The position numbers and the translations under genes were made by a program. A model generated the notes under the pieces. That model made no database searches and was not told the origin of the DNA. It saw only the letters and a program-made list of their open reading frames with translations. From Malacoraja senta (lineage: Eukaryota), in assembly GCA_038087875.1 (NCBI GenBank), contig CM075991.1, forward strand, positions 11,534,001-11,598,000: a stretch of DNA of 64,000 bases, given 5' to 3'. Every line of letters begins with the position of its first letter. Position 1 is the stretch's first letter. Of this stretch, positions 1,307 to 58,734 are shown piece by piece.

Positions 1307-1937
1307 TTTTACGCAACGTTTCAACTTCTCAACATAGAGTTGGTTCGTGGCCCCGACCACGGATGAACAAAGGAGGAGGACTGAACGTTATTGCCTTCCA
1401 CCACAGTGAAGAATGTTGATTCCACTGTGGTGGACGTTGATGTGGTATTCTCTTGTGTATTGTGCTCTTTGTGGCTGCATGGTGTCATATTCCACTCTTA
1501 CCTCAATTGGTGCGTGTGGCAATAAATGTGAACTTGAACTTGGGTTAAATGGCAAAAAGGACACAATTACAAAGTGGATTGGGTTTGAGTGCAGTAACAC
1601 CTGCCTTTGAGATGAAGGAGGAAGCTACTAAATGCAAGGAAACGCTGCAAACTGCAGATGCTGAAATTGGGAGGTAAAGTCAAAGTGCTGGAGAAACTCA
1701 GCGGGTCAGGCAGCAACTGTACAGAGAATGGACAGACATTCTTTTGGGCTGGAAGGAACTGCAGATGCTGATTCGGAATCCGAAGGTAGACACAGAAAGC
1801 TCAGCGGGTCAGGCAGCATCTCTGGAGAAAAGGAACAGGTGACTTTTCGGGACGAGACCCTTCTTCAGACTGAGAGTCAGGGGAGAAGGGAAACGACCGA
1901 TACAGACCGTGAATGTAGAGAGATGGTGAACAAGTGA

Positions 1938-2345
1938 ATGGGTCTGAAGAAGGGTTTCGGCCCGAAACGTTGCCTATTTCCTCCAGTCTGAAGAAGGGTT
2001 TCGGCCCGAAACGTTACCTATTTCCTTCAGTCTGAAGAAGGGTTTCGGCCCAAAAACGTTGCCTATTTCCTTCAGTCTGAAGAAGGGTTTCGGCCCGAAA
2101 CGTTGCCTATTTCCTCCAGTCTGAAGAAGGGTTTCGGCCCGAAACGTTACCTATTTCCTTCAGTCTGAAGAAGGGTTCGGCCCAAAAACGTTGCCTATTT
2201 CCTTCAGTCTGAAGAAGGGTTTCGGCCTGAAACGTTGCCTATTTCCTTCAGTCTGAAGAAGGGTTTCGGCCTGAAACGTTGCCTATTTCCTTCGCTCCAT
2301 AGATGCTGCCGCACCCGCTGAGTTTCTCCAGCACTTTTGTCTACC
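1938..2345 (+). repeat. Tandem array of eight 44-bp hammerhead-core units plus the element tail
   Basis: CTGAAGA at 1944, 1988, 2032, 2077, 2121, 2165, 2209 and 2253. Unit is approximately CAGTCTGAAGAAGGGTTTCGGCCCGAAACGTTGCCTATTTCCTT. Confidence 0.9.
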
Positions 2346-4927
2346 TTTAAATGGGTCAGGACCCTTCTCCAGACTAATGCTGTCAGAGGGAGAAAGCTGG
2401 TTTCCTCCACAGCTGCTGCCTGAGTCCAAATACAGTATCACCACTGTATGCAGGATATAATACACAGTGGTCTGCTCCACTGTAATATCTCAAGGTATGT
2501 CTACTTTGAAGAAATTCTCCTCTTCTCTCCGACAAAAGTTCAGCACCATCCTCCCTGTCTTTGATTTGTCCTTTTACAAACCTTCCATTCATCCGCTTTT
2601 TGTACATTTTCATATCTCCTTACTTCCCTCTCCCCAGACTCTGGGTCAAGAAGGATCTCGACCCGAAAGGTCACCCATTCCTTCACTCCAGAGATGCCGC
2701 CTGTCCCGCTGAGTTACTCCAGCAATTTGTGTCTATCTGTGGCTGCAGTGAATGGCTGGACCACGGGCCTGGTGACTCACTTTGTTTTTTAAATGCGGAC
2801 ACATCAACCAATTTTTCTTTCTGATTGAGTAGAGGGGGCTAACGGTGGCCTGGAGAACGATCGAGCTCAAATCAAAGGCCCTTCAACAACCCTGTGAGAT
2901 CATTCCCTGTTTGCCTACTCTGGGTATTAGCAGTGTTTTGGGTTCTACAAACCAAGTGTTTAATTCCCCCTTCTGATTCAGCTACTGTCCTCTCAGAGTG
3001 CCCTGTGTATGAAGGAACTGCAGATGCTGGTTTAAACCGAAGATAGACACAAAAAGCTGTTCTTTGGTCTGTCCGAAACTTGCCGATATCCCAGCAGAGC
3101 GAGATGCCCGACGGGGGATTGTTGCCGACCGGCCCGCTCCAGACGGCAGGAGTACTTGCTGAGGGACGCACTGAAGCTCGGTGCAGCCAACGCCAAGGCT
3201 CTGTGGGGGAGGGCCACAGTCTAGGGACCTTTCGCTGCTGGACATGGGGGAGGGGCAAAGTCCCGGGGGGGGGGGCACCCCTCGAATAAGGGAAGGGACA
3301 TCACCCCAGGTGCATCGTTCACCGAGCTGTCTGAAGTTTCTGCACCACATTAAGGGTGGTGAATCTGTGGAATTCTTTGCCACAGTGGGCTGTGGAGGCC
3401 AGGTCAGTGGATATATTTAAGGCAGAGATAGATAGATTCTTGATTAGTACGGGTGTCAGGGGTTATGGGGAGAAGGCACGAGAATGGGGTTAGGAGAGAG
3501 AGATAGATCAGCCGCGATTGAATGGCAGAGTAGACTTGATGGGCTGAATGGAATAATTCTACTCCTGTCACTTGTGACCTTATGAAACCTCACACTGAGA
3601 GATAGATGTCCATGGCATGGGGCAGGTTAGCGGCTGTGATGAGACTGGGAAAGGGATGGTGGCTCCCTCTAGAATTGCCCATAAACGAGGGGGGGGGGGG
3701 GAGGGAGGGGGGGGGTTCAGACCTGGATTGAGAGGTGATTAAGCTCTGCCTGCCAGATTCAAGCAGGATTTGTGCCTCAAAGCCCCGGCTCAAATTAGCT
3801 GAAGCCAATCCTAAAAGTGGTGACTGAGGAGGGGAATACCGTGTCTTTCCAGCAGGGAATCTCGCTTTTGGAAAATGCACAGCCGTTCCTGCTAATTTTA
3901 ACCATTTGCCCAGAGATAAGAGCTCGCTTGGTGTTGGAGACTGAAACTATTTATATCAGGACTAAAATATGATTCCCATGATAAGTTGACCATGCGGGTT
4001 AGCACTGAGGTTAGGGGAGAAGGGAGGGGGGCGAGGGGGTGCAGTTCTCCAGAAACTGTTCAGAGACCAGGTTAACCCTTTGCACACAATCATAGAAAAT
4101 AGGTGCAGGAGTAGGCCATTCGGCCCTTCGAGCCATTCAATATGATCATGGCTGATCATCCAAAATCAGTACCCCGTTCCTGCTTTTCGCTCATATCCCT
4201 TGATTCCGTTCGGCCTAAGAGCTAATTCTAAACTCAATCAAAAGTCAACTCAGTCAAAATCATCTTAAGCTAACATTTTCCCCCAGGACTTTATTCCTGT
4301 GGAGCAAGTCACCCCAGCATTGAACCCATGAGAACATCCTCTCCAATCTACCCTCTTGCCTTTGCGAGTGCTTCCCTCCAGCACATAGAGCTGATTTTTT
4401 AATGAGAACACATCAAAACTCAGGGCACAGGCAAAGGCCATTCGTCCCATCAAATCCCTGCTTGTCAAAACAGGACAGATGCCGTTTACCGCCTCTTGGT
4501 CATTGGCCTTGATGGGTCAGTTCATCATCCGCGTACAGTCCAAATGTGACGTGTCGACCCGAAACGTCACCTATTCCTTCGCTCCATAGATGCTGCCTCA
4601 CCCGCTGAGTTTCTCCAGCATTTTTGTCTAACGTCCATACACCAAGGTGTCTTTATCGACTGCATTTCTCTATATTGCACCTACCCAATTTTAGTTTTAG
4701 TTTAAAGTCGTTCAAAATCATCCTGAAGGTTACCAAAAAAAGGACTTTTCACAACTTCAAGATATCAGAAAGACAATGGGTAACTCAGAACTTTATGGAA
4801 TTGTCAAGTGGGAAACACAACATCCACATTGTACACGGCAACGTCCGACAAATATTAGTGTTAGCAGTTGAGATAACGTTGGTGCAGGATGCTGTAGAGA
4901 CCTCCCCTGACTCTCCCCCTTCATAAC

Positions 4928-7037: not shown

Positions 7038-9155
7038 CCCAGCCTCAACTGCCTCTCTAATAGTTTCACCATGGCACCTTATACCATTCGATATGATCTT
7101 CCTATGTTACAACTTGTAACTTGACTGATATATCCCGTGCCTCCTAACCATCTCATCCTTTGGTTCATCCTGTACTTCAAGGATCCCACTGTTCCTCTCT
7201 GCTTCTCAGAATTCCACCATTTATCATGTATTCCCTCCACAAATGGTGGGTGGTTGGAACAAGCTGCCAGAGGAGGTAGTTGAGGTAGACACAAAAAGCT
7301 GGAGTAACTCAACAGGTCAGATAGCATCTCTAGAGAAGATGTTCTGGTCAAGACCCTTCCAGTCTGAAGAAGGTTCTCGACCCAAAACGTGACCTATTCC
7401 TTTTTCTCTGGAGGTGCTGTCTGACCTGCTGAGTTACTCCAGCTTTTTGTGTCTATCTTCGTTATAAACCAGTATCTGTAATTTCATACTACACAAGGTG
7501 AAGCCATACTTCACGGTACAATGCATATTTCCGATCACCACGCTACAGGAAGGATGTGTTAGCAGCAGAGATGGCTTACATGGAAGTTATCAATGATGGA
7601 GTATCGCAGGTATGAGAGATTAAAAAGGCTGGTGTTGTTAGTTCTCCTCTTAGATGCTTCTGCTCCAGATGAAACAACTCCAGCCTTTTTAATCTCCCAT
7701 AACTAATATTCTCCAGCATTAACATATGAGACTCACTTGAGTTGAACTAAGCGGAGAGACTCATAACTATCAACAAAGATTTCATATGTGGACAGAGGGT
7801 TAGTGAGGCCCGAAGTTCCAAATACCAGCAAAAACTACCATCTATCAACTACCAACTCTCAGCAGGTAAATACCAGAGAGCGGTGATCACACACACACTC
7901 GTCACATTTGGAGGCATGGTTTTTGGACAACGTCCTTGCTTTCTCCCACCTTCCCCTCCCCTTCCGAGCTCTCCCTCAGCCCACTGTCCCCGCCTCTTCC
8001 TTTCTTTCTCCCCCACCCTTCCCCGACATCAGTCTGAAGAAGGGTCTTGACCCGAAACGTCGCCTATTCCCTCTCTCCATAGACGTTGCCTCACCCGCTG
8101 AGTTTCTCCAGCATTTTTGTCTACCATCGATTTTTCCAGCATCTGCAGTTCTTTCTTCAACGTTTGGTGTATGGAAGTTACCTGACATTTGCAACAGTGA
8201 CCACAACAGTGCCACATCCGGGAACTCCTACACAAGCTGAAAGGTTTCACTGGCTGAATATCATGTCATGGGCTACGCAACTGCAGGTTCTGTGGTAACA
8301 CAAATAAATCTTCCACTTTGTACATTTGCCACCAATGCCACCCAGAGAGAGAGAGAGAACATCGAGATCTTTGCCTCTCTTCCTAGGGGGCATTTCCATT
8401 CTTGCTTTTTAAGAAGGCAGGAACGGTGTACTGATTGGGGATGATCAGCCATGATCACAATGAATGGCAGTGCTGGCTCGAATGGCCAAATGGCCTACTC
8501 CTGCACCTATTGTCTATTGTCTATTCTCTCAAGAGATGCTACCTGTCCCACTGAGTTACTCCAGCTTTTTGTGTCTATCAACATGCAACCTTAGAATGGC
8601 TTTACCTTCACAGGAGTCATTGATGTCCACAGATTACAGAAAATGATACAGGTATACATTGTTGGGTTATATATCTACATATAGATATATATATATATGG
8701 ATAGGTGCACTCGAATAGATGGTTGATGGCAAGGTTGAGATATTGGGAGAGTATGTTCTATAGGCAGGAAATCTGTAGATCATTTCTCTGTTATAAGGAC
8801 GTAACAGAAATAGAGACTGGACCATGTGATAAATAGCCAAATAGATATCGAGTGATGATAGATTAATGAACAGGTAAATGCACAGAAAGACAGGCATGTA
8901 GTTGGAGGCAAGGGGGGATATTAGACTGATAGACAACTGAGGTTAATACTGGATGTGATCAATGAAGCTGAATAGAGAAATTCATATCTTTCATTCATTT
9001 GTTCTATAACTCTCGACATCACCGTCTATATCTCAGTCTGAAGAAGGGACTCCACCCGAAATATCACCTATTCCTTTCTTCCAGAAATGCTGTCTGACTC
9101 GCTGAGTTACTCCAGCTTTTTATGTCTATCTTAAGAGAAATTAATTGGTGCATAA

Positions 9156-9510: not shown

Positions 9511-10289
9511 TAAAAGAATGGACAACAAATATGTAGCGTGAAGAGTGGAAAATAGAAGATAGACAGAAAGCTGGAGTAACTCAGCGGGACAGGCAGCATC
9601 TCTGGAGAGAAGGAATGGGTGACGTTTTGGGTCGAGACCCTTCTTCAGACGGCGCCTATTTCCTTCGCTGTCTGAAGAAGGGTTTCGGCCCGAAACGTTG
9701 CCTATTTCCTTCGCTCCATAGATGCTGCTGCACCTGCTGAGTTTCTCCAGCATTTTTGTCTACCTCCAGTTTTTGTTCATCTTTACAACTTCCCTCCTCA
9801 GCTGAAGTAGCTTCCCTAGTGATGTCTCTGACTAAACTAAAGGCCATTACTTTAAACCGTGAGTACCAGGAAAAAAACATTTATAATTCATTTTCATTTA
9901 TAATGTGCCTTTCGCAATCTTAAGCTGTCCCAGAATGGTTTACAAAGTCCATACCATTCTCAAAATGCAGCCAGTGTTCTAACAGAGAAAGAACGTGCCA
10001 GTCAATTTGCATAAGGCCAGATCCAACAAACATTTGTGTGATAATGATCAGTAATCTGCTCTCGTGATGTGGATTGGGGGATAAATATCGGCTTGGACAC
10101 TAGAGTATTCCCTACTCCTAGATTGGTTTAGTTTAGTTTCGAGATACAGATGTGTATGTGTTCGGAATGTGGGTGTGTCTGTGTCGACTTATCACTGATT
10201 AAAATTCAAAAAAATCTAAATACCTTGAATTTCAAACCGACCATCTTCAACTGATGACGTTGCAATGGATCGACTAGCAGGGGGAGGGC

Positions 10290-12643: not shown

Positions 12644-13738
12644 GAAGGTACACAAAAATGCTGGAGAAACTCAGCGGGTGCAGCAGCATCTATGGAGCGA
12701 AGGAAATAGGCAACGTTTCGGGCCGAATCCCTTCCGGGTTTCGGCCCGAAATGTTGCCTATTTCCTTCAGGGTTTCGGGCCGAAACGTTGCCTATTTCCT
12801 TTTTTTTTTTTTTTATTTTTTTTTTATTTTTTTTTTAATTTTTTTTTTTTATTTTATTTTTTAGAAGTACGGTAGATTACAGTAATGTACAACACGTATA
12901 TATTAATACATTTTTTGTACCGCTTCACTTTTTTAAACTTTAAGAAAGAAAAAGAAAGAAGTAAGAAAAGTGAAGAAAGTGCGCAAAGGTTGTGAAGTGC
13001 AAAAGAGTGTTGGGAAAAGAAAGCCCCTTAGAAAAGAGGTTAGAGAAGGAAGTAAAGTTAGAAAATAGACCCTAGAAAAAAAAAGAGAAAGAAAGAAGGA
13101 ACAATCGCTCTATTATAACTCTTATACCATACTTCATAGAGAAGGAACTACCAACCAAGTCTGTTTTTATTTTACCTCCCATTACCAGGTCCAGATACCT
13201 TTTATTTATTTATTTGTTTTTCTAAATTACTATTGCACCTCATGCTTGTAATAGGTCCAAAAACGTAGACCACGTCTTTTGAAATTGATCTACTTTGCCT
13301 ACTAGGAGGAATCTCATCTCTTCCAGATGTAATGTTTCCAACATATTTGATGTCCACATTTTTATTGTTGGTGTGGGCGCATTTTTCCAGAATTTAAGTA
13401 TAAGCTTTTTTCCCATTATTAGCCCATAATTGAGTAAATTCTTCTGATACACGTTTAATTCAGGAATACCTTCCGATATTCCAAAAATAATCCATTCTGG
13501 TTTTGGTACCAGTTTTATTTTGATTAATTTTGAAAAAATATCAAATATTTCAAACCAGAATTTTTGGATTTTTGTACAAAAAACAAAAGAATGTGCTATG
13601 GTAGCTTCTTGACATATACATTTATCACAGATAACGTTGCCTATTTCCTTCGCTCCATAGATGCTGCTGCACCCGCCGAGTTTCTCCAGCATTTTTGTGT
13701 ACCTTCGATTTTCCAGCATCTGCAGTTCCTTCTTTAAC
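12644..13738. mobile_element. Palindromic Penelope-derived element with 17-bp TSD, interrupted by an L1 insertion
   Basis: AACATGTAGCCTTGATA at 12627-12643 and 13739-13755 flanks the two arms. Confidence 0.8.
12802..13632 (-). mobile_element. 5'-truncated L1-clade LINE (ORF2 C-terminus, 3' UTR, poly-A)
   Basis: CDKC...H...C knuckle followed by KFWFEIF...LIMGKKLILKFWK...W. Poly-A appears as the T-run at 12802-12862. 18-bp TSD AACGTTGCCTATTTCCTT at 12784-12801 and 13633-13650. Confidence 0.85.
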
Positions 13739-19700: not shown

Positions 19701-20277
19701 TTATCACAACATTGACATTCATTAACAGTGGTGAGGAGATCGCCTTGGAGTGTGGCGTGCCTTTTCCTCAGTCGCCAGAGAGAGAGAGAGTGGGCTGTAA
19801 GATTCAAGAGAGTCTATTGTGGTGTGTCCCAGGTAGGACAATGACATTCTTGCTCTGCTTCAGCACAACAGAACATAGTAGGCATTGACTACACGAAGCG
19901 GTGGCAACGTTAGCTATAACCCCTCCATCTCAACAAAGCCACCTTGGTCAGTTCCACAAACACCTTTTGTCACTTGCCTTCTCCTTCCAACCTCCCGGTT
20001 GTGGCTTAACACCAAGTGGCTGCTTGAGAAAGCCTTGCGATTCTACAGCACTGTTGTGCCCAGAGGTGTCCACAACCAGTGTGGTCCTTTAGATACATGG
20101 TCACTGTGGTGGTACAAGTGCCCTAGGAAGGAACTGCAGATGCCAGTTTACACTGAAGGTAAGACACAACATGCTGGAGTAACTCAGCGGGACAGGCAGC
20201 ATCTCTGGAGAGAAGGAATGAATGGGTGACGTTTCGGGTCTTCTGAAGAAGGATCTCCCCTTCTCTCCAGAGATGCG

Positions 20278-20615
20278 GGTAGACAAAAATGCTGGAGAAA
20301 CTCAGCGGGTGCAGCAGCATCTATGGAGCGAAGGAAATAGGCAACGTTTCGGGCCGAAACCCGGAAGGGTTTCGGCCCGAAACGTTGCCTATTTCCTCCA
20401 GTCTGAAGAAGGGATTCGGCCCGAAACGTTGCCTATTTCCTCCAGTCTGAAGAAGGGTTTCGGCCCGAAACGTTGCCTATTTCCTCCAGTCTGAAGAAGG
20501 GTTTCGGCCCGAAACGTTGCCTATTTCCTTCGCTCCATAGATGCTGCTGCACCCGCTGAGTTTCTCCAGCATTTTTGTCTACCTTCGATTTTCCAGCATC
20601 TGCAGTTCCTTCTTA
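20278..20615. mobile_element. Palindromic Penelope-derived non-autonomous element with three tandem hammerhead-core units
   Basis: Inverted arms, central junction GAAACCCGGAAGGGTTTC, and CTGAAGA units at 20403, 20447 and 20491. Confidence 0.8.
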
Positions 20616-20880
20616 AACTCCAGAGATGCTGCCTGTCCCGCTGAGTTACTCCAGCTTTTTGTGTCTATCTTCGGTTTAAACCATCTTCGGAGCCCCCCCC
20701 CCCGACCACAGATGAACAACAGAGGAGGATGACTGAACTTTGGTGCCTTCCCTCACAGTGGGAAACTTTGATTCCGCTGTGTGGGGTTGTCTATGTTAAA
20801 GACTATCGTGTTCTGTGCTCTTATTTATTCGTATGGCTGTATGGTGACCACAAATTTCACTGTACTAATTGGTAGATGTG

Positions 20881-21165
20881 ACAATAGACAATAGGTGCAG
20901 GAGTAGGCCATTCGGCCCTTCGAGCCAGCACCGCCATTCAATGTGATCATGGCTGATCATCCCCAATCAGTACCCCGTTCCTGCCTTCTCCCCATATCCC
21001 CTGACTCCGCTAATTTTAAGAGCCCTATCTAGCTCTCTCTTGAAAGCATCCAGAGAACCTGCCTCCACCGCCCTCCGAGGCAGAGAATTCCACAGACTCA
21101 CCACTCTCTGTGAGAAACAGTGTTTCCTCGTCTCCGTTCTAAATGGCTTGCTCCTTATTCTTAAA
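20881..21165 (-). mobile_element. CR1 LINE 3' fragment
   Basis: Reverse complement of the family at 941-1306. Confidence 0.85.
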
Positions 21166-21400
21166 GTGACAATAGATGTCTCTTGTCTCTTGCATCTGCA
21201 GTTCCTTCCTACACAATTGTAATCCTGTAATGTCTTGCCACTTGTGTCTACCTCTGAGGAAAGTTCTCCCCGTTCTACATGCCTGGTATACAGGGGAACC
21301 TATCTGCACAGGAATGCTGAAGAGAGCTGTAACACCACTGTGTAGTTAGGAACTGCAGATTCTGGTTTAAACTGAAGATAGACTCACAAAGCTGGAGTAA

Positions 21401-21732
21401 TAGCCCTGTCCCACGGTACGAGTTCATTCCAAGAGCTCTCCCGAGTTTAAAAAAAATCAAACTCATGGTAAGCACGGAGAATGAACGTAGCGGGTACGTC
21501 GGAGCTCGGGGATGTCTCTTAGCGGCTCGTAACGCCAACGGCAGGTACTCGGGAAGACTCGCTAACGGCAGGTAAGCACGGGAAGACTCGTGAAGATTTT
21601 TCAACATGATGAAAAATGTCCACGAGAGCCCCGAGTACCGACGAGCGGCCATTACTCCGTAAATCTCCGAGTTCGAAACAGGGCAAACTCGGGAGAGCTC
21701 TTGGAATGAACTCGTACCGTGGGACAGGGCTT
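21401..21732. mobile_element. MITE, PIF/Harbinger-like, inserted in a hammerhead element
   Basis: ~46-bp TIR GCCCTGTCCCACGGTACGAGTTCATTCCAAGAGCTCTCCCGAGTTT. The host motif GAGTAACTCAG is split with TAA duplicated (21398-21400, 21733-21735). Confidence 0.85.
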
Positions 21733-22545
21733 TAACTCAGCAGGACAGGCAGCATCTCTGGAGAAAAGGAATAGGTGCCGTTTCGGGTCGAGACCCTTTC
21801 TTCAGACGAGCACCACTGCCTCTCTCTATTCCTCTCTAAGTTGCCCATGCTGTGTGAGTGGGACTTTAACTAAATATTGTAAATAGTTGTGTTAATTCTA
21901 GTTTCCAAGGGCAGGAGGATTTTCTAAACGGAGGACACGGATCGAAGACAAAAACCTGAAGAAGCAGAGAAAAGCTAGGATTTTCTTTTTGTAGTAATCG
22001 GGAATGTGGAAATAGATTTTACATTGGAGAGGTGTTGACAAGAAGTTTGGAGTCCTCTGGCAGAGAGAGAGGATAGGATTCAGTAGAAACTATTTCAAGA
22101 AGGATCAGTCTGAAGAAGGGGTTCGGCCCGAAACGTTGCCTATTTCCTTCGCTCCATAAATGCTGCCTCACCCGCTGAGTTTCTCCAGCACTTTTGTCCA
22201 CCTTCGATTTTCCAGCATCTGCAGTTCCTTCTTAAACACATTGTTCAAGACATGGTTGGCTGAAACCTCCGCCTTGCATTCTATGAATGACCGCGATCAC
22301 TACAGAGAAGGCATGGAATCAACCACCCATGTGATTTGACTTTCCTGCAACTGAGCAGTGGTGTGTGTTGAATGTCACCCGAACTACTATCTGCCTCTCT
22401 GGTGAAAACGCACACACCTCCAGATTCAGGGACAGTTTCTTCCCAGCTGTTATCAGGCAACGGAATCATCCTACCACATCCAGAGAGCAGTGCTGAACTA
22501 CTATCTACCGCATTGGTGACCCTCGGACTATCCTTGATTGGACTT

Positions 22546-23445
22546 TAGATACATAGATACATAGAAAATAGGTGCAGGAGTAGGCCATTCGGCCCTTCGA
22601 GCTTGCACCGCCATTCAATATGATCATGGCTGATCATCCAACTCAGTATCCCGTACCTGCCTTCTCTCCATACCCCCTGATCCCTTTAGCCACAAGGGCC
22701 ACATCTAACTCCCTCTTAAATATAGCCAATGAACTGGCCTCAACTACCTTCTGTGGCAGAGAATTCCAGAGATTCACCACTCTCTGTGTGAAAAAGTTTT
22801 TTTCTCATCTCGGTCTTCAAGGATTTCCCCCTTATCCTTAAGCTGTGACCCCTTGTCCTGGACTTCCCCAACATCGGGAACAATCTTCCTGCATCTAGCC
22901 TGTCCAACCCCTTAAGAATTTTGTAAGTTTCTATAAGATCCCCTCTCAATCTCCTAAATTCTAGCGAGTATAAGCCAAGTCTATCCAGTCTTTCTTCATA
23001 TGAAAGTCCTGACATCCCAGGAATCAGTCTGGTGAACCTTCTCTGCACTCCCTCTATGGCTATAATGTCCTTCCTCAGATTTGGAGACCAAAACTGTACG
23101 CAATACTCCAGGTGTGGTCTCACCAAGACCCTGTACAACTGCAGTAGAACCTCCCTGCTCCTATACTCAAATCCTTTTTGCTATGAATGCTAACATACCA
23201 TTCGCTTTCTTCACTGCCTGCTGCACCTGCATGCCTACTTTCAATGACTGGTGTACCATGACACCCAGGTCTCGCTGCATCTCCCCATTTCCTAATCGGC
23301 CACCATTTAGATAATAGTCTGCTTTCCTGTTTTTGCCACCAAAGTGGATAACCTCACATTTATCCACATTATACTGCATCTGCCAAACATTTGCCCACTC
23401 ACCCAGCCTATCCAAGTCACCTTGCAGTCTCCTAGCACCCTCCTT
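22546..23445 (-). mobile_element. CR1 LINE 3' fragment (longest in window, frameshifted RT C-terminus)
   Basis: LQGDLDRLGEWANVWQMQYNVDKCEVIHFG..RDLGV..VKKANGML..LYRVLVRPHLEYCVQFWSP. Confidence 0.92.
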
Positions 23446-23967
23446 TGTTTAAGAAGGAACTGCAGATGCTGGAAAATCGAAGGTAGACAAAAATGCTGGA
23501 GAAACTCGGCGGGTGAGGCAGCCTCATCTATGGAGCGAAGGAAATCGGCAACGTTTCGGGCTGAAACCCTTCTTCAGACTGATTATCTATGGAGCGAAGG
23601 AAATAGGCAATGTTTCGGCCCGAAACGTTGCCTATTTCCTTCACTCCATAGATGCTGCCTCAACCGCTGAGTTTCTCCAGCCTTTTTAGTCTACCCTTGT
23701 GTATTTTTCTATACACTTGTAATGGCTTGATTGTAATCATGTATTGTCTTTCCGCTGACGGGATAGCACCGCAACAAAAGCTTTTCACTGTACCTCGGTA
23801 CATGTGACATTAAACTGAACTGTACTGAACTAAACCTTTGAAATTTGTTTGCATAGGAGTTAACTTTCAGAGATGAAGTGCCATGCACAGCTAACTCAAT
23901 ATCACATTCAAAGCCTTTACCACATTTGGTGATAGTTTAGCCATGGTAAACCCGATGTTGGTAAAAC

Positions 23968-24300
23968 CCGATGTTGGGGAAGTCCAGAACAAGGGGTCAC
24001 AGTTTAAGGATAAGGGGGAAGTCTTTTAGGACCGAGATGAGAATTTTTTTTTTTCACCCAGAGAGTGGTGAATCTGTGGAATTCTCTGCCACAGAAAGTA
24101 GTTGAGGCCAGTTCATTGGCTATATGACCTCATTAAGAGGGAGTTCGATGTGGCCCTTGTGGCTGAAGGGATCAGGGGGTATGGAGAGAAGGCAGGTACA
24201 GGATACTGAGTTGGATGATCAGCCATGATCATATTGAATGGTGGTGCAGGCTCGAAGGGCCGAATGGCCTACTCCTGCACCTATTTTCTATGTTTCTATG
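23968..24300 (+). mobile_element. CR1 LINE 3' fragment
   Basis: Same family as 6505-7037. Confidence 0.88.
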
Positions 24301-24624
24301 TATGGAGTGGTGGAATCATCTAGTCGGGCTGGGTAAGGCAGGTTAGTTCATTGAATGACATGTGGACTAGTTTCTAGAACAAAGTGCGGTGCTTTCATGG
24401 TCTCTCACGCTGCCTCTTCGAGGTGGAAAGGTGCAGGAAGGAACTGCAGATGCTGGTTTAAACCAAAGACACATAAAGCTGGAGTAATTCAGTGGGCCAG
24501 ACAACACCTCTGGCGAAAAGGTCTGAAGAAGGGTCTCGACCCAAAACGTCACCCATTCCTTCTCTCCAGAGATGCTGCCTGACCCGCTGAGCTACTCCAG
24601 CTTTTTGTGTCTGTCTTCAAGAAG

Positions 24625-24835
24625 GAAGAGGCCTCGTGGACCAGCGAGTGCCTCCTGCGGGTGTGGGGACCCAACACAGAGGGTGGAGCACATAGTCACC
24701 AGTTGCCCCAAACACCTGCCACCGAATGGTGAACGAGGTGTCATTGACCTGGACGATGACACGTTGGCCTGGCTCGCCTCAACGGAGCTGCAGGTCTGAA
24801 AGACACGCGGCAGAAGGAGAAGATGGAAGATAGAA
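24625..24835 (+). mobile_element. Non-LTR retrotransposon 3' remnant with CCHC knuckle (clade uncertain)
   Basis: SASCGCGDPTQRVEHIVTSCP...DDDTLAWL* followed by a GAA-rich tail. Confidence 0.5.
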
Positions 24836-25636
24836 GCTGCCCGTGGCTGGACGTCTCCATCCAGGTCACACTGTCAATACACAACACAGTTGCTAATTCA
24901 CAAATAGTGCTCAAAGCACAGCCACAATTGCCCTTCAGCTGATCACTGCCAGACTGTGTGTACTCACCATTATTATGCAGACCTCCTGGTGTAGGGCATA
25001 CAAAACATTTATGACAAGGATCATTCATTTTCTTCTTATTATCAGCAATATGAACTCACATCAAATTTTATCAAAGAGGTGAGAGTGTTGAAAAACAATT
25101 GCTGGCTAACCACACAATTAAGAGTAATTGGATTAAACTTTGTCTTCCAACCCTAAGCAAAGCAGCTAAACGATTAAAAAAACACCTTTTCATACATATG
25201 AGGTGGAGGGGAGATCCTTTGACCAGCTGGCAAAGGGTTTGATGAGGAAAATTCCAATCAACATAGATCCAGGTTTCCTCTCCAAGGGCAAAAATGATGG
25301 TGGGATTGCCACTAATTTGTAGCCCTTCTCTCTTCTCCTGAGTGAGTGTGGTGTACACTAAACACTCACGCATCTCCCCGCTGCCTTCAGGTAGAAGGTA
25401 CAGGAGCCTGAAATCTGCAACATCCAGGGGTCAGGAATAGCTGCTTCCCCACAGCCATCAGGCTATTAAACTCAACTCAAACAAAACTCTGAACATTAAT
25501 ATCCCATTGCACTTTATATGTTATTTATGTGTGCGTATATATATATATTCAATGGTATATGGTCACATTGATCTGTGAATGTATTTATCTCTACTATACT
25601 CTGTTGTGCTGAAGCAAAGCAAGAATCATTGTCCTA

Positions 25637-25926
25637 GGTACACAAAAGTGCTGGAGAAACTCAGCGGGTGCAGCAGCATCTATGGAGCGAAGGAAATAGG
25701 CAACGTTTCGGGCCGAAACCCTGAAGGAAATAGGCAATGTTTCGGGACGAAACCCGGAAGGGTTTCGGGCCGAAACGTTGCCTATTTCCTTCGCTCCATA
25801 GATGCTGCTGCACCCGCTGAGTTTCTCCAGCAGGTACACAAAAATGCTGGAGAAACTCAGCGGGTGCAGCAGCATCTATGGAGCGAAGGAAACAGGCAAC
25901 ATTTCGGGCCGAAACCCTTCTTCAGA
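25637..25926. mobile_element. Composite Penelope-derived hammerhead element inserted in a LINE 3' UTR
   Basis: Palindromic arms plus a further partial arm, flanked by TCATTGTCCTA at 25626-25636 and 25951-25961. Confidence 0.75.
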
Positions 25927-26753
25927 CATGTGTCCCAGATAGGACAATTGTCATTGTCCTATCTGGGACACATGACAATGAACTCTCTTGAATCTTGAAC
26001 ATTTGGCCAGAGTCAAGACAAAAGTCTTTGGAAGCAGTTTATCCTCTGAAGGATGTCCGTGAACTGGCATCCTCTCCCCCCGACTCTCGGTCTGGAGAAG
26101 GGTCTTGGACTATCCTTGATCGGACTTTGCTGGCTTTACCTTGCACTAAACGTTATTCCCTTATCATGTATCTCTACACTGTAATGGCTCAATTGTAACT
26201 GGATTCGGCCGCGGGACTGACTTACTTCCCATCACCCGGCGGGGTCACAACATCGGAGGCCTGGATCGCCTCAACGCAGAGGGAGAACAAGGACGGAAGA
26301 GACAAGGACTTTAAGACTTTTGCCTTCCATCACAGTGAGAAGGACCTGGTGGACTCACTGTGGTGGATGTTAAATCTGTGTTTATTGTGTGTTTGGTTAT
26401 TTTATTCTCTGTTCTGACTGCAAGGCACGACATTTCGTCCAGACTGAAAAGTCTGAATGACAATAAAGGATACTTTGCTTTAATCATGTATTGTCTTTCC
26501 GCTGACTGGATAGCACGGCTACAGAAGCTTTTCACTGGACCTCGGTACATGTGACAATAAACTAAACTGGACTGAAAATGGGCGGATCGGGGGAGGGGGG
26601 GGGGGCACTCTACTGCATAAAAGAGAAGGCTTATGGTTGGTCCTCAAGGTTTGGCTGAAGGTAGACACAAAATGCTGGAGTAACTCAGCGGGACGGGCAG
26701 CATCTCTGGAGAGAAGGAATGGGTGACGTTTCGGGTCGAGACCGTTACTACTC

Positions 26754-26965
26754 AATGGACAATAGACAATAGACAATAGATGCAGGAGCAGGCCATTCGG
26801 CCCTTCGAGCCAGCACCGCCATTCAATGTGATCATGGCTGATCATCCCCAATCAGTACCCCGTTCCTGCCTTCTCCCCATATCCCCTGACTCCTCTATTT
26901 TTAAGAGCCCTATCTAGCTCTCTCTTGAAAGCATCCAGAGAACCGGCCTCAACCGCCCTCTGAGG
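26754..26965 (-). mobile_element. CR1 LINE 3' fragment
   Basis: Reverse-complement CR1 tail. Confidence 0.85.
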
Positions 26966-27319
26966 TGGAGGCAATGGGTTTGCGAGCATTGACGCAGGTT
27001 CGCAGGCAAGCAAACGCAACACAATGGAACTTCAGTGTCAAGTTGGACCCAATATGTGTTGGGGCCACCTCAGCTGGAATGAATGTGGAATTCACTGGAA
27101 TGGTTTGAGTCAATGTATTGGATTATTGAGGAGGAAGCTGGAGATGCACGTGGGGGAGATAAGGAGGTAATGATGGTGTGAGATGGACACAAAATGTTGG
27201 AGTAACTCAGTGGGACAGGCAGCATCTCTGGAGGGAACGAATGGGTGACGTTTTGGGTCGAGACTGGTGGACTCAGTGGTGGATGTTAAATCTGTGTTTA
27301 TTGTGTGTTTTGAGGAACA

Positions 27320-27857
27320 AATCTGAGGAAGGACATTATAGCCATAGAGGGAGTGCAGAGAAGGTTCACCAGACTGATTCCTGGGATGTCAGGACTTTCA
27401 TATGAAGAAAGACTGGATAGACTCGGCTTGTACTCGCTAGAATTTAGGAGATTGAGAGGGGATCTTATAGAAACGTACAAAATTCTTATGGGGTTGGACA
27501 GGCTAGATGCAGGAAGATTGTTCCCGATGTTGGGGAAGTCCAGGACAAGGGGTCACAGCTTAAGGATAAGGGGGAAATCCTTTAAGACCGAGATGAGGAA
27601 AAACTTTTTCACACAGAGAGTGGTGAATCTCTGGAACTCTCTGCCACAGAGGGTAGTTGAGGCCAGTTCATTGGCTATATTTAAGAGGGAGTTAGATGTG
27701 GCCCTTGTGGCTAAAGGGGATCAGGGGGTATGGAGAGAAGGCAGGTACGGGATACTGAGTTGGATGATCAGCCATGATCATATTAAATGGCGGTGCAGGC
27801 TCGAAGGGCCGAATGGCCTACTCCTGCACCTATTTTCTATGTATCTATGTATCTATG
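27320..27857 (+). mobile_element. CR1 LINE 3' fragment
   Basis: ORF 27353-27880 is the CR1 ORF2 C-terminus. Confidence 0.92.
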
Positions 27858-27994
27858 AGACCCTTCTTCCTATGGACTAGTGGAAGGAGGCTGAATATGG
27901 ACTAGAGTGCGGCCCAAAGAGAATGTCTCCTCATTGTATGTTCAATATTATTCTTTTCCCACTCAATTTAAGACTGATCTGTGCTTGTGTTTAT

Positions 27995-28455
27995 GAAGGA
28001 ACTGCAGATGCTGGAAAATCGAAGGTAGACAAAAAGTGCTGGAGAAACTCAGCGGGTGCAGCAGCATCTATGGAGCGAAGGAAATAGGCAACGTTTCGGG
28101 CAGAAACCCTTCTTCAGACTGAAGGAAATAGGCAACGTTTCGGCCCGAAACCCTTCTTCAGACTGGAGGAAATAGGCAACGTTTCGGGCCGAAACCCTTC
28201 TTCAGACTGAAGGAAATAGGCAACGTTTCGGCCCGAAACCCTTCTTCAGACTGGAGGAAATAGGCAACGTTTCGGCCCGAAACCCTTCTTCAGACTGAAG
28301 GAAATAGGCAACGTTTCGGGCCGAAACCCGGAAGGGTTTCGCCCCGAAACGTTGCCTATTTCCTTCGCTCCATAGATGCTGCTGCACCCTCTGAGTTTCT
28401 CCAGCACTTTTGTCTACCTGCGATTTTCCAGCATCTGCAGTTCCTTCTTAAACAC
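27995..28455. mobile_element. Palindromic Penelope-derived element with five minus-strand tandem hammerhead-core units
   Basis: Inverted arms AAGGAACTGCAGATGCTGGAAAATCG...CGATTTTCCAGCATCTGCAGTTCCTT, TCTTCAG repeated at 44-bp spacing from 28111, same central junction. Confidence 0.8.
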
Positions 28456-29028
28456 AAGGATCCACGCCTGTTTCTGGCACATAGTCTTGGAAAGGTGGCG
28501 GGATTCCTAAGACAGCGGGATCCCCCTCTGCTCCTCTTCCTTCCCCAACAGTGCAGGAGGCATCTCTGGTGCATGATGACGACGACCGAGAGGATTGCCC
28601 CGTGAGCTTGGACCCTGCGGACCGAACAAGAATAGGGTGAAGTCATTGTTAAATCACGCTCCCCCCCACCCCCACCCCTCACTGAATTTTCAAAGATTCT
28701 GCAGAGGAGACAGGAGGGAGAGGAAAGAGCAACTGGGTCTCAGATAATCTAGAGCAGTCTGCAACTGACTTTGAACTGTTGACAGGAATGCACAGCTGCC
28801 GATGGACTTCTTCATTGTCCCTGTGTGGAGCCGCCCCCATGACCGAGAAAGGGCCGTTGGGTCTTTGGCCGTTCCAGCAGGATATTGTCAGTGGAGAGGT
28901 TGCAAGCCCAGACGCCCCCCGGTGAACGTGAAGAGATTCCGTCGTGCATTTTACTACCTCAAGCAGCCCCAAAGTTCTCAGTAATTTGTGAGGTGCCTTC
29001 TGGAGTACAGTCATAGTTGTGTGCAGCT

Positions 29029-31317: not shown

Positions 31318-31517
31318 NNNNNNNNNNNNNNNNNNNNNNNNNNNNNNNNNNNNNNNNNNNNNNNNNNNNNNNNNNNNNNNNNNNNNNNNNNNNNNNNNNN
31401 NNNNNNNNNNNNNNNNNNNNNNNNNNNNNNNNNNNNNNNNNNNNNNNNNNNNNNNNNNNNNNNNNNNNNNNNNNNNNNNNNNNNNNNNNNNNNNNNNNNN
31501 NNNNNNNNNNNNNNNNN
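31318..31517. other. Assembly gap of 200 N
   Basis: Seen directly. The round length suggests a placeholder of unknown true size. Confidence 0.98.
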
Positions 31518-31895: not shown

Positions 31896-32451
31896 TGTGC
31901 CTGAGGTGCTGGCTGGGGTGGGGCGGATGCTGGGTGCCCGTGTACTGATCGCTGGTTGCAGGGGGAGGTCGGGGGGAGTAGGGGTGGGGGGGGAGCAGTT
32001 CTGACATACCCAGTAATACTCCCTGTAACGGTGAGTTTAAAGCTGGATATGGCAGCACGGTGTAGCCGGGATCATCAATCATCTCATCAAAGCCAGACAT
32101 GATAAAAGCAAAATATAACGGCTCCGAAAAATACTTCTGTAACTCGGCCTCGTATCTGCAGTGGGGAAATTGGGCTCATAAATCAAAGAGGCTTGTTGCA
32201 GTCAGTCCAAGTCTGGGAACGCCAGCCTTTGCTGTTACTCCTCAGAGCTCAGCCAGGTAATTTAGCAAATGCCAAATGAACAAATATCTTGTCTTTCCCC
32301 TGACTGTGAGAGTGGAAACAGAGAATGGTTCATTAAATGGACACACCTGTGATAATGCCAGGGTCTGTACAGGTGAAGGAAAAATGTTTCCGATCTTTCC
32401 TTCCCCTGCTTTGAGTAAATTTGTTCTGGTAACTAAACCATCCCCTGGTAA

Positions 32452-32872
32452 CAAAGGTCAGTGTGGGAATGGGAGGGGGAGTTAAAGTGTTTAGCAACCA
32501 GGAGATCACATGGGCTTAGGCAGACTGAGTGGAGGTGTTTGGCGAAACGATCTCCGAGCCTGTGCTCGGTCTCGCAGACGTACAGGTGTTCACACCTGGA
32601 ACAGTGGCTACAGTAACTGTGTTTGGAGGAGGTGCAAGTGAACCTCTGCCTCACCTAAAAGGACAGTCGGGGTCCTTGGACGGAGTCCAGGTGGGCGGTA
32701 AAGGTACAGGTGTTGCATCTCCTGCGGCTGCAGGGGAAGGTACCTGGGGAGGGGGTGGTTTGGGTGGGAAGGGACGAGTTGACCAGGGAGCGGTCTCAGC
32801 GGAAAGAGGAAAGGGGTTGGAGATGGGAAGATGTGGCTAGTGGTGGGATCCCGTTGGAGGTGGCGAAACTGC
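32452..32872 (-). mobile_element. Penelope-like retroelement fragment, GIY-YIG endonuclease domain (degenerate)
   Basis: ORF 32433-32654 reads FTCTSSKHSYCSHCSRCEHLYVCETEHRLGDRFAKHLHSV...VAKHFNSPSHSHTDL, matching the PLE pattern FTC..(IY)C..C..C..(YIG)ET.R....R..EH...HF. Confidence 0.85.
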
Positions 32873-33559
32873 CACTGGATCTGGGTCAGTTCCCCAACGC
32901 CACACTCCCATAGTGTCCTATCCTCCCAGCAACCCCCCTCCCTCCTCACAACCCCCCCCCCCCCCATACACCCACCACCCTCTCAGTTCCAGATTCCAAA
33001 CCCTCAGAATGAAAACAATCCCATAAGGTCATAAGCGAAAGGATCTGAATTAGGCCATTCGGCCCATCAAGTCTACTCCGCCATTCAACCATGACTGATC
33101 TATCTCTCCCTCTCAACCCCATTCTCCTGCCTTCTCCCCATAATCCCTGACACCCGTCCTAATCAACAATCTATCTATCTCGGCATTAAAAATAACTATT
33201 GACGGCCTCCACGGCCGTCTGTGGCAATGAATCCCACAGATTCACCACCCTGTACAATATCTTGCCCACCCTCCAGCTTTAGACGTCTCCAGGGTAGAGA
33301 AGGTTCTCACTGGACATACCATCACTCAGTAGACCTCCCTCAGGCTCCTCTATCTCCACTCCTGCTTGCACTCCAGACAATCCTGAATCATGTTGGAGAA
33401 AAAGAGGGATTCACTGAATCAGTTGGAGGAGTGGGGGGGATAGAGGGATCTTAGCATCAAACAGCAGACCAGAAAAGCCCCAGACCAAAAGCTGTGTAGA
33501 TGAACCGCAGATAGGCGAAACGATGGATAGAAAATGGTGCAGATAAACAGATAAGAATA

Positions 33560-39030: not shown

Positions 39031-39568
39031 CACGCATGGTGTAGTATCACTCAGCTATCACGCCTCATTCTGGCAGCTTTTATTGCAGCTGAAATAAATA
39101 GTGGCCAATTAAACTTTATAGCTGAGAGATGGGCACCAAATTTATCGCAGTGTCGCTCTAAGTGATTATATGTGGCAGTAATGGACTGGTTGGGGAGCAA
39201 TGATTCAACTGTGGATTTGTTTTGAGAGCTGAATTTTTTGTTTGAAATGATAATTTAAAGTGATGTTGTGCTGTGTGTGTGTGTGTGTGCGTGTCACAAA
39301 CGAGCCCGTCACAGAGAGTAGCGGCCTGCCTGCTTCCCAACTCTGCTAATTACTCAGCTTTCGTTTCAAGGCCTTGGATTTTACATAATCGCGGTTGTTA
39401 AAGCCTCACACAGGTCTCCGGGCGGACACCAAAAGCCGGAGTAACTCAGCTGGACCGGCAGCGTCTCTGGAGAGAAGGGATGGGCGACACTTGTTCAGAA
39501 CCGGAAAACGTCACCCATTCCTTCTCTCCAGAGATGCTGCCTGTCCCGCTCAGTTACTCCGACATCTT

Positions 39569-39820
39569 AGGTAGACAAAAGTGCTGGGGAAACTCAGCGG
39601 GTGCAGCAGCATCTATGGAGCGAAGGAAATAGGCAACGTTTCGGGCCGAAACCCTTCTTCAGACTGGAGGAAATAGGCAACGTTTCGGGTCGAAACCCGG
39701 AAGGGTTTCGGCCCGAAACGTTGCCTATTTCCTTCGCTCCATAGATGCTGCTGCACCCGCTGAGTTTCTCCAGCACTTTTGTCTACCTTCGATTTTCCAG
39801 CATCTGCAGTTCCTTCCCAC
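39569..39820. mobile_element. Palindromic Penelope-derived hammerhead element
   Basis: Inverted arms, one extra 44-bp unit, central GAAACCCGGAAGGGTTTC junction. Confidence 0.75.
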
Positions 39821-54861: not shown

Positions 54862-55441
54862 CGAGACCAACGATTGTTTCGCTGAACACCTCCGCTCAGT
54901 TCGCCTAGGCCGTCATGATCTCCTGGCTGCCAAAGACTTTAACTCCCCTCCCATTCCCACACTGACCTTTCTGTCCTGGGCCTCCTCCACTGTCAGAGTG
55001 AGGCCCAGCGCCAAATTGGAGGAACAGCACCTCATATGTCACTTGGGCAGCTTCCACCCCAGCGGTATGAACATTGACTTCTCTAACTTTAAGTAGCCCT
55101 TGCTTTCCCTCTCTCTCCATCCCTCTCCCATCCTAGTTCTCCGACCAGTCTGACTGTCCTGAATAAATTTATCGCGTTATGCCTCCTTGTCACCTTCCCG
55201 AGCTAACAATAATCTATTCTACATGTTCCTTAATCCTCATCCCCTTTGCTCTCTTATTTTCACACCTTACCCTTCCATATCTCTTGTTCCACTCTCCCCT
55301 GACGCTCAGTCTGAAGAAGGGTCTTGACCCGAAACGTCACCCATTCCTTGTCTCCTGAGATGCTGCCTGTCCCGCTGAGTTACTCCAGCATTTTGTGTCT
55401 ATCTTCGGTGTAAAGCAGCATCTGCAGTTCCTTCCTACACA
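54862..55441 (+). mobile_element. Penelope-like retroelement 3' end: degenerate GIY-YIG C-terminus, 3' UTR and terminal repeat with hammerhead core
   Basis: Translates with frameshifts to ...FAEHLRSVR...LSVLGLLHCQSEAQ...LEEQHLICHLGSFHPSGMNIDFSNFK*. This is followed by a pyrimidine-rich UTR, then CTGAAGAAGGGTCTTGACCCGAAACGTC at ~55311-55338, then the conserved tail ending TCTGCAGTTCCTTCCTACAC. Confidence 0.85.
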
Positions 55442-55570
55442 CTTAAGATCAAGTCAATTGGAACAAACCCACCTCGATCACTGACTTGTGTGGAAGATCT
55501 CTCTTACAGTATTCCCTCATCATGTATCTGTACACTGTGAATGGCTCGATTGTAATCGTGTATTGTCTTA

Positions 55571-57579: not shown

Positions 57580-57952
57580 AAACTTACAAAATCTTAAGGG
57601 GTTGGACAGGCTAGATGCCAGGAAGATTGTTCCCGATGTTGGGAAGTCCAGAACAAAGGGTCATAGTTTAAGGATAAGGGGGAAGTCTTTTAGGACCGAG
57701 ATGAGAAAAACATTTTTCACACAGAGAGTGGTGAATCTGTGGAATTCTCTGCCACAGAAGGTAGTTGAGGCCAGTTCATTGGCTGTATTTAAGAGGGAGT
57801 TAGATGTGGCCCTTGTGGCTAAAGGGATCAGGGGGTATGGAGAGAAGGCAGGTACAGGATACTGAGATGGAAGATCAGCCATGATCATATTGAATGGCGG
57901 TGCAGGCTCGAAGGGCCGAATGGCCTACTCCTGCACCTATTTCCTATGTTCT
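57580..57952 (+). mobile_element. CR1 LINE 3' fragment
   Basis: [26 protein letters not shown]. Confidence 0.88.
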
Positions 57953-58082
57953 ATATATACACTGTGTGTGTGTGTATACATAAATATATATACTGTGTAT
58001 ATTTTGTATATGTATTATGAACTTTTTTATGGTGCTGACTGTAAGTAAGAATTGTTCTGTTCTGGGACTTGTGACAATCTTA

Positions 58083-58390
58083 AGGGCCTGTCCCACTGTA
58101 CGAGGTAATTCAAGAGTTCGCCCGAGTTTTCCCTGATTCGAACTCGGAGAATTACGGTAACAGCCGCTCGTAGGTACTCGGGGCTCTCGTGGACATTTTT
58201 CAACATGTTGAAAAAACTTGACGAGCTTACTGCGTTTCCCGAGTACCTGCCGTTAGCATTACGAGCTGCGAAGAGACGTCCCGAGCTCTGACGTACCCAC
58301 TACGTACATTCTACGTGCTACCCACGTGTTTGATTTTTTTTTAAACTCGGGGAGAGCTCTTGGGTGAACTCGTATAGTGGGACAGGCCCT
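58083..58390. mobile_element. MITE, PIF/Harbinger-like (related to 21401-21732, opposite orientation)
   Basis: TIR AGGGCCTGTCCCACT, TTA/TAA flanks. Confidence 0.8.
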
Positions 58391-58734
58391 TAAATCACTC
58401 TTTCTCTTGACTCTTTAGGGCCAAGGGTCAAGGATGCTGCATCAGGGGTGGTGGGGCATGAGTTAACAGCTGCAGGTCAACCGCAGAGCCCGGACACAAT
58501 GCTCCCTGCTCCCCCCCCCCACCATTGCCCACACTATGGATTTCACATCTGGTCGATTCAAGCAGCTCCATTATAGTTTAATGGCCTGGAACTGGAAGTG
58601 TAATAATCAAAGGAAGATCAGAGCATGCCTGTCTCCCAGTGAGTGCACGTCCCCCCCGGAGGCAGGCGTAGTTTTAGGTTAGTTTATTGTCACGTGTACC
58701 CGAGGTGCAGCGCTCCTCAGTGCCGCCCCTCCCA

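Follow-up and report, generated by a model that had tools for sequence, protein, structure and literature searches.

Insertions of Penelope-like retrotransposons (PLEs) in which pLTRs stand head to head around a palindromic joint, with a tail, target duplications and movement in trans, have already been described (PMC3846280). In endonuclease-bearing PLEs, an optional tail of 30-40 nt is found at one end and the duplications measure 8-10 bp (PMC3846280, PMC8557442). The non-LTR retrozymes form another related group, consisting of tandem hammerhead units of 51-972 bp derived from pLTRs and including one cartilaginous fish (bioRxiv 10.64898/2026.07.22.740005), for which Li et al. 2026 discuss local tandem amplification in the same work. 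For the Poseidon element of Anolis carolinensis (PAc), in vitro work placed the tail between two RT start sites (Frangieh et al. 2024, PMC11167929), with both target strands cut and extended and the hammerhead unnecessary for insertion (PMC11167929). The origin of tandem and inverted PLE insertions is stated to be unresolved (PMC8557442, PMC11167929).

Palindromic copies in the window

The window (the whole stretch of 64,000 nt that was analysed) contains a series of related copies, A to H, which we lean towards reading as a young, ORF-less and stub-like subfamily of a Neptune-like PLE. Their limits and the parts of copy E are as follows, with the strand given where one was assigned.

1942..2347, plus strand: copy A, array with seven junctions and a short arm; central junction absent
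9654..9773, plus strand: copy G, in which a young arm bearing another tandem junction meets an older arm head to head
12644..13738: copy B, in reverse orientation, with the shared centre, a 34-bp unit and a 17-bp target duplication
20278..20618: copy C, with the shared centre, arms that are short on the left and long on the right and, on the GAAG side, three 44-bp junctions
23446..23695: copy H, a young-type palindrome of slightly greater age whose own centre lies at an internal mini-palindrome
25636..25950: copy D, with the shared centre and a 34-bp unit; its right arm is truncated and it has an additional reversed monomer
27984..28458: copy E, the complete palindrome, made up of two long arms, the central junction and, to its left, five 44-bp junctions
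27984..28121, minus strand: left arm of copy E, PLE pLTR 3' end, reference 1-135, with minimal hammerhead motif and tail
28122..28329, minus strand: 44-bp unit array of copy E, four complete hammerhead-core units and one partial
28323..28340: central head-to-head junction of copy E, 7-bp stem with a GGAA loop
28331..28458, plus strand: right arm of copy E, reference 10-135, first part of the hammerhead core missing
39569..39816: copy F, with the shared centre, a single 44-bp junction of the C allele, a short arm on the left and a long one on the right

Copy E runs from a reversed arm through a reversed array of 44-bp units and the central junction to a forward arm, and it is predicted to fold as one long hairpin (-329 kcal/mol versus -141 +/- 7 in shuffles, z = -27), in agreement with the palindromic element of the original prediction. 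Its inverted symmetry goes about three bases past the usual arm end (27984-27987 and 28455-28458), and these extra symmetric bases may be an inverted copy of the target, as in copy D, where an 11-bp target duplication is accompanied by an inverted copy of the target of ~22 nt.

Several copies are nested with other repeats. Copy C, which has a 12-bp target duplication, sits within an older-subfamily copy and, more generally, the young copies C, A, F and G lie within or beside older copies of the family (20124-20690, 1863-2380, 39425-39568 and 9555-9773, respectively), while D and B are nested with other repeats. Homing of the young copies to their own pLTRs is possible; arms cover 12% of the window as background. 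At 12802-13632 the right arm of copy B is broken up by a poly(A)-tailed insertion of later date, which has an 18-bp duplication of its own. This insertion (minus strand) is a 5'-truncated retroelement fragment containing a frame that gave no Pfam match and whose cysteine-histidine motif resembles, as we take it, the C-terminus of an L1-type ORF2.

Other repeats of the window lie outside the PLE stub family, namely two further long inverted pairs (22549-24303 and 57694-59202) with arms of 159-172 nt located ~1.1-1.4 kb apart. There is also a 2.4-kb minisatellite at 60572-63022 (10/19/29-bp unit), which yields long spurious ORFs, and, beside a CT microsatellite, a 200-base assembly gap at 31318-31517, directly behind which a decayed hammerhead arm starts. 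The host is an animal whose genome is rich in repeats, and these suggest a cartilaginous fish.

The arms as PLE 3' ends

A BLAST census using two in-window references retrieved 90 arm pieces, which cover 7,612 of the 64,000 bases and belong to an older and a younger subfamily. The coding remnants that bear on their origin are the following.

54869..55445, plus strand: 5'-truncated parent-type PLE, with frameshifted GIY-YIG C-terminal remnant, 3' UTR and older-subfamily arm
54869..55093, plus strand: the GIY-YIG C-terminal remnant itself, followed by the 3' UTR and a full older-type hammerhead arm at 55306-55445
32388..32879, minus strand: second PLE remnant, broken, in which the GIY-YIG region is preceded by a cysteine-rich linker; homologues of the first remnant map back to it (E = 1e-44 for P0002 in tblastn)

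Since the endonuclease remnant is followed by a 3' UTR and then by the arm, the arm is, on the grounds of this gene order, the hammerhead-bearing 3' pLTR end of a PLE. The order is seen in the older subfamily only, through which the endonuclease link passes, as no young-subfamily arm joined to an ORF remnant was found in the window. Similarly, no intact RT-endonuclease ORF is present in or beside the copies, and only broken remnants occur elsewhere in the window.

The translation of the remnant at 54869-55093 retrieved 17 homologues at E <= 0.001 in a full HMMER search (best E = 3e-10). Nine of these were scanned with Pfam: three presented weak GIY-YIG matches below Pfam's cut-off, one of which also matched RVT_1 at 6e-19, five had no Pfam match, and the remaining one is a receptor with a short matching tail. 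A Pfam scan of three translations from the window gave 0/3 matches, and a word-indexed homologue search was also empty. A Zn-finger-like cysteine motif in the RT-EN linker marks the Neptune and Nematis clades (PMC8557442). The cysteine motif before GIY-YIG at 32.7 kb suggests that the parent PLE was Neptune-like, with the same motif also present in Nematis. A weak reverse-transcriptase-related match at 23263-23427 (minus strand, E = 7e-7 with P0005) probably belongs to a neighbouring LINE.

A central junction shared by five copies

The 18-base central junction, GAAACCCGGAAGGGTTTC, is found exactly on the plus strand at 20356, 25749, 28323 and 39692 of the 64,000-nt window, and on the minus strand at 12725-12742 with one mismatch. 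Matches were recovered in 0/100 shuffles, the chance expectation being 0, so that the single recurring centre proposed in the original prediction is real; all copy counts rest on this one window and, for the junction, on five copies. Its breakpoints lie at reference positions 13 and 10, with one untemplated base added and without microhomology.

Head-to-head pairs are frequent in the older and younger subfamily alike, and 18 of their centres were compared (11 old-old, 6 young-young and the old-young hybrid G). In the window, the centre is identical in 5/6 young-young palindromes, untemplated base included, and the sixth (H) has its centre on an internal mini-palindrome. The centre of the hybrid G is unlike the shared junction. 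The old-old pairs have centres with differing letters in 11/11 cases, two of them having one breakpoint in common and the aligner having located two breakpoints poorly. The youngest arm allele class is found in all five junction copies, whose arms differ at 0-5 of 71 bases.

The presence of one centre in 5/6 young palindromes, against 11/11 differing older centres, suggests that the central junction was most likely inherited from a source RNA and not remade at each insertion. The opposite reading would have RT stop, fold back or join at the same bases every time, steered by the new mini-palindrome. Head-to-head joints are indeed common enough in this family to make such events conceivable, tandem jumps recur at other breakpoints too (the 34-bp unit and copy G), and Arkhipova et al. 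interpret such palindromes as self-priming products (PMC3846280). Nevertheless, we consider this reading distinctly unlikely. Repeated formation of an identical junction is hard to reconcile with the lack of microhomology, the untemplated base constant in 5/5 copies and the older centres that do not repeat; moreover, the mini-palindrome predicts another centre, seen once (H), and a pure fold-back would mirror the units, which are on one arm only. Inversion as such is clearly recurrent. The repeated RT jumps that the original prediction gave as its second alternative apply to the family as a whole, with its 11 differing older centres, and not to the shared junction. A splice product was also tried as the origin of the central or the 44-bp junction and was dropped, as inspection by eye showed no GT-AG segment removed.

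Target duplications, ends and arm agreement

Target duplications were detected in 4/6 of copies A-F: 17 bp in B, 12 bp in C, 11 bp in D and, as a candidate, 8 bp in A. None was found at the flanks of E and F. In random flank pairs, at least 10 bases were shared in 16 of 3000 trials and at least 8 in 58. The distinct duplications of these four show that the copies are separate insertions.

The outer arm ends fall into two classes located ~35 nt apart, a short end and an end with the tail. With all junctions turned the same way, the ends are short/long in C and F, long/long in E and long/short in B; B and D, which form one lineage (34-bp unit and shared SNP), differ in end class on the same arm (long vs short). 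At two polymorphic sites, the arms are concordant within the copy in 4/4 complete pairs, which occurs in 3 of 105 random matchings and 2 of 24 left-right permutations (p 0.03-0.08); this comparison leaves out D, whose right arm is truncated and whose two scorable pieces disagree at one site, the one that borders a T run where the left arm of E carries an extra T. The arms of E and F retain private differences. As the ends fall at two PLE 3' termini regardless of the junction orientation, the arms agree within copies and the units can be on either side, the outer arms look rebuilt at each insertion. Each of these signs is weak alone, and jointly they point to an exchange of information from arm to arm at insertion.

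A different explanation is end-to-end copying of the entire palindrome as one hairpin RNA, in the manner of a SINE-like passenger of the PLE, with conversion and slippage in the genome acting later. It would account for the centre and the unit junctions being held in common, and for copy E with its two full arms and single hairpin fold. In addition, arm-to-arm conversion, which this explanation needs, is to be expected where the loop of a palindrome is 4 nt long. However, nothing would then make the 5' end stop at the same two positions at which RT starts, yet both ends do, and the long and short ends that B and D present on the same arm within one lineage are equally difficult to obtain by this route. 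The private differences in the arms of E and F also indicate that post-insertion conversion is not fast. Copying of the entire hairpin is, therefore, an unlikely account in our view. The first alternative of the original prediction, a defined family mobilised in trans by Penelope, is favoured by the shared centre, the separate duplications and the PLE remnants on such arms, except that the hairpin does not seem to be copied whole as a fixed unit.

We also considered a foldback DNA element or MITE moved by a transposase, a proposal which, together with that of arrays being artefacts of the assembly, we judge highly improbable. The long terminal inverted repeats and the lack of an ORF are what such an element would display. 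The arms, however, are PLE 3' ends, and the variable ends with 8-17-bp duplications are unlike those of a DDE transposon. As a class, the MITE or foldback DNA transposon was rejected on account of the two alternative ends per side and duplications of 8, 11, 12, 17 bp or none.

The hammerhead motif

The first 38 bases of the arm contain a minimal type I hammerhead motif, composed of the core boxes, one extra base, a 4-bp stem II and a loop-less stem III, and 26 sites in the window satisfy a scan for the core plus stem II. Stem I is 2 bp at 23/26 of these sites, the young subfamily has GUU as its triplet, and stem II has a predicted probability of <=0.002 at 20/20 sites examined. The stems pair in 94.8% of cells over 16 distinct rows, compared to 2-55% in slid controls, the rows having been pre-chosen by the hammerhead scan. 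Changes between the subfamilies preserve pairing through G-U wobble, without any two-sided change, and the covariation score is not above shuffles.

Rfam gave no match at gathering score over the whole window. With a relaxed E-value, 34 sub-gathering matches were obtained around the element, mostly to microRNA-hairpin models and none to a hammerhead; the microRNA-hairpin matches, all below gathering, were discarded as generic hairpin matches. The 'hammerhead' label of the original prediction is, thus, appropriate for the sequence motif (core boxes and 4-bp stem II), although it has no Rfam match and presents a stem I of just 2 bp and a GUU triplet. In the preferred model below, the hammerhead of the units is inherited from the parent and would probably cleave badly, if at all.

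The best-formed hammerhead of the window is the first unit of array A (1937-1980), which gained an 8-bp stem I from the target. The base preceding the hammerhead core follows a pyrimidine tract and CAG, resembling a 3' splice site, at 55290-55312, 8020-8036, 1860-1885 (minus strand) and each 44-bp junction, and many truncated copies start within a few bases of this position. In the Penelope element of D. virilis, the intron end is located at helix I (PMC4209133); by analogy, splicing might supply a longer stem I.

The 44-bp units and their arrays

The 44-bp tandem junction occurs 16 times at four loci (A 7, C 3, E 5 and F 1), the same four, at 1.9, 20.4, 28.1 and 39.6 kb, that had been indicated from the sequence at the outset. 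TRF copy numbers are 8.0 for A (1.9 kb), 3.8 for C (20.4 kb) and 5.8 for E (28.1 kb). The initial unit counts of 0, 1, 3, 5 or 8 are recovered for 1, 3 and 5, while the 8 corresponds to unit starts, there being seven junctions at 1.9 kb. The copies scored as 0 indeed lack the 44-bp junction but are not empty, since those at 12.7 and 25.7 kb (B and D) carry a common 34-bp unit of deletion type, ten bases shorter than the 44-bp unit, plus a shared SNP. The junction counts are all odd (1, 3, 5, 7), which is not significant with four loci.

The units are found on the GAAACCC side in E (28.1 kb) and F (39.6 kb) and on the GAAG side in C (20.4 kb); the C-type unit junction itself is on the GAAG side in copy C and on the opposite side in copy F. 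The junction alleles are C,T,T,C,T,T,T in A, C,C,C in C, T,C,T,C,T in E and C in F. In array A, three variants mark units 4-6 as a repeat of units 1-3, and a fourth is common to the last two units; CpG transitions account for two of these variants. Shared variants of the CpG type point to mutation in DNA followed by duplication, either at the locus or at the donor. Across the arrays, duplications recur with periods of 2 and 3 units and are accompanied by CpG decay. The loops of stem II are flipped in 5/33 cases, all within junction-bearing copies and three of them in units of copy E, which fits single-stranded or hairpin intermediates and does not favour one model over another.

These patterns bear on the idea of the 44-nt unit as a minimal retrozyme, which its hammerhead would excise and which would be circularised and reverse-transcribed round the circle into arrays of variable length. 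In each unit the core boxes are indeed intact and there is one cleavage site, stem III would permit dimers by its self-complementarity, array C is uniform at the junction site, and circles have been proposed as templates for tandem PLE copies (PMC4209133). Nevertheless, arrays A and E mix two alleles that are common across loci, which requires a multi-unit template rather than a single 44-nt circle, and array A is a duplicated 3-unit block sharing CpG-type changes. A circle of this kind would also be devoid of the arm where RT starts, and further points against it are the 2-bp stem I, the GUU triplet and the improbable stem II reported above. Even among retrozyme dimers, only 1/9 of those tested were cleaved (Li et al., bioRxiv 10.64898/2026.07.22.740005). 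A 44-nt circle is, therefore, very improbable, and the small circular or repeated template of the original prediction is disfavoured by the mixture of two shared unit alleles and the periodic, DNA-type duplications.

No independent long record across any array was present in the four sequencing runs aligned over 20000-29000, a point in favour of the arrays being assembly artefacts. Against this, the units differ by ordered and repeated variants that an assembler would not invent.

Sequencing runs, transcripts and collection scans

Part of the window stretch is contained in 20/21 listed sequencing runs, under 8 organism labels; no RNA run is recorded as containing it. Four of these 21 runs were aligned to 20000-29000, where repeats swamped the alignments (37,929 joints beyond those listed), and the joints listed include none that marks an empty site for C, E or H. 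A joint from 25626 to 25951, skipping 25627-25950, is present in 4/4 runs and confirms the limits of copy D, within a high-copy target repeat. In run X1 the unique pieces matched without difference, while those of X2 contained many differing positions, so that X2 represents another species. Over the array bin, X1, X2 and X10 reach a very high summed depth, which is consistent with a high-copy family, though it neither gives a copy number nor demonstrates that different species have the junctions in common. A contig of X1 is identical to 28459-29000 from the first base outside copy E, and its first 29 letters, which were not placed, could be an artefact or another allele. The shares in other organisms are 0.40-0.47, at or just above the 0.39-0.40 attainable from the arms and the neighbouring repeat alone and, therefore, do not prove that the junction is shared between species.

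In one run of poly(A)-selected RNA from another species, the array bin is covered on both strands, by 25 and 28 reads, and 82% of all aligned RNA reads continue into other sequence. The sole pile of RNA ends in the array (28169) is off the cleavage site. This two-strand coverage fits read-through, and the aligned RNA reads contain no defined transcript from the element. Exact-pattern scans of viral contigs, metagenome contigs and prokaryote genomes gave no matches.

A model for the propagation of the palindromes

The best model, which we prefer with limited assurance, is twin priming on one sense arm, in which the inherited centre would let two cDNAs anneal. One ordinary head-to-head PLE insertion would have given rise to the source element. 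Its RNA would come from read-through of host promoters in either direction, always ending in a sense arm, and would serve the PLE protein as a template in trans. RT on the sense arm would then be primed by each of the two strands of the cut target, at the short end or at the end of the ~35-nt tail. One of the cDNAs would cross the inherited junction into the mirror arm, becoming complementary to the other; annealing of the two followed by fill-in would leave the centre inherited and both outer arms rebuilt. Out-of-register annealing among the 44-bp units, together with later slippage or unequal exchange in DNA, would alter the unit number and could shift units to the other arm. Twin priming predicts copies with units on both sides, and none is found in the window.

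A more ambitious version, which we put forward tentatively and as somewhat less probable than its contrary, is that of a self-propagating palindromic PLE parasite, whose inherited central hairpin would act as a joining cassette for twin-primed integration, whose two arms would be rebuilt with each jump and whose unit number would be set by misregistered annealing. If it were true, thousands of natural copies would record the joining of PLE cDNA ends, an unsolved step.

Comparison with known systems

The copies resemble the inverted pLTR insertions (Arkhipova et al. 2013, PMC3846280; Craig et al. 2021, PMC8557442) in their head-to-head pLTRs, palindromic joint and tail. The duplications are 8-17 bp here and 8-10 bp in the known insertions, whose pLTRs suffice for trans movement. 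In contrast to them, the present copies consist of just two pLTR ends within 250-475 bp, without ORF or cargo, and one junction is letter-identical at five independent loci, whereas the accessible portions of those papers describe no fixed inherited centre.

The motif is similar to the minimal PLE hammerheads described by Cervera and de la Pena (PMC4209133), with the core boxes, an extra base before stem II and a loop-less, self-complementary stem III, and also in the mostly solo truncated copies with some opposite-strand pairs. Stem I is 2 bp, as in D. virilis, 4-5 bp being usual in that study, and the triplet of the young subfamily is GUU.

With the animal non-LTR retrozymes (PMC7229834; Li et al. 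2026), the arrays share non-autonomous tandem hammerhead units derived from PLE pLTRs, mostly up to seven in number. Indeed, arrays A and C contain at least two consecutive PLE-derived units with the hammerhead motif, which is the operational test of Li et al. minus their energy filter. The canonical retrozyme is defined by a type I hammerhead with tertiary contacts in a unit of 150-400 nt, and the 44-bp unit with its 2-bp stem I falls outside this definition. It is also shorter than the units reported by Li et al. (51-972 bp) and by Cervera and de la Pena in 2020 (~300 bp, PMC7229834) and, unlike in retrozymes, it is located inside a palindromic pLTR dimer, without canonical helix I or loop-loop contacts.

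In PAc, which belongs to a different PLE clade, two RT start sites delimit the tail, comparable to the two end classes found here. The accessible part of the PAc study is silent on how the two extended strands are joined, the step that the fixed junction may serve (PMC11167929).

The accessible parts of PMC6431247 and PMC12910113 contain nothing specific to the palindromic stubs, and neither an ORF-less pLTR dimer with a fixed inherited centre nor a 44-bp unit is described in the literature searched, which lies mostly outside subscription papers and repeat databases. The question of prior description raised at the outset is, thus, answered by earlier work for the general anatomy (PMC3846280, PMC8557442, PMC4209133, bioRxiv 10.64898/2026.07.22.740005) and not for the fixed shared centre. 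A fixed asymmetric centre in a high-copy family is a natural label that distinguishes the inherited from the rebuilt parts of an insertion using genome sequence alone. In addition, a pLTR stub can yield both a MITE-like palindrome and a retrozyme-like minisatellite, and such repeats are prone to mis-annotation as DNA transposons or microRNA hairpins. What is new here is not a kind of element but the combination of a fixed shared centre and a variable 44-bp run, the shortest such tandem hammerhead unit in the literature searched, on a known pattern of PLE insertion.
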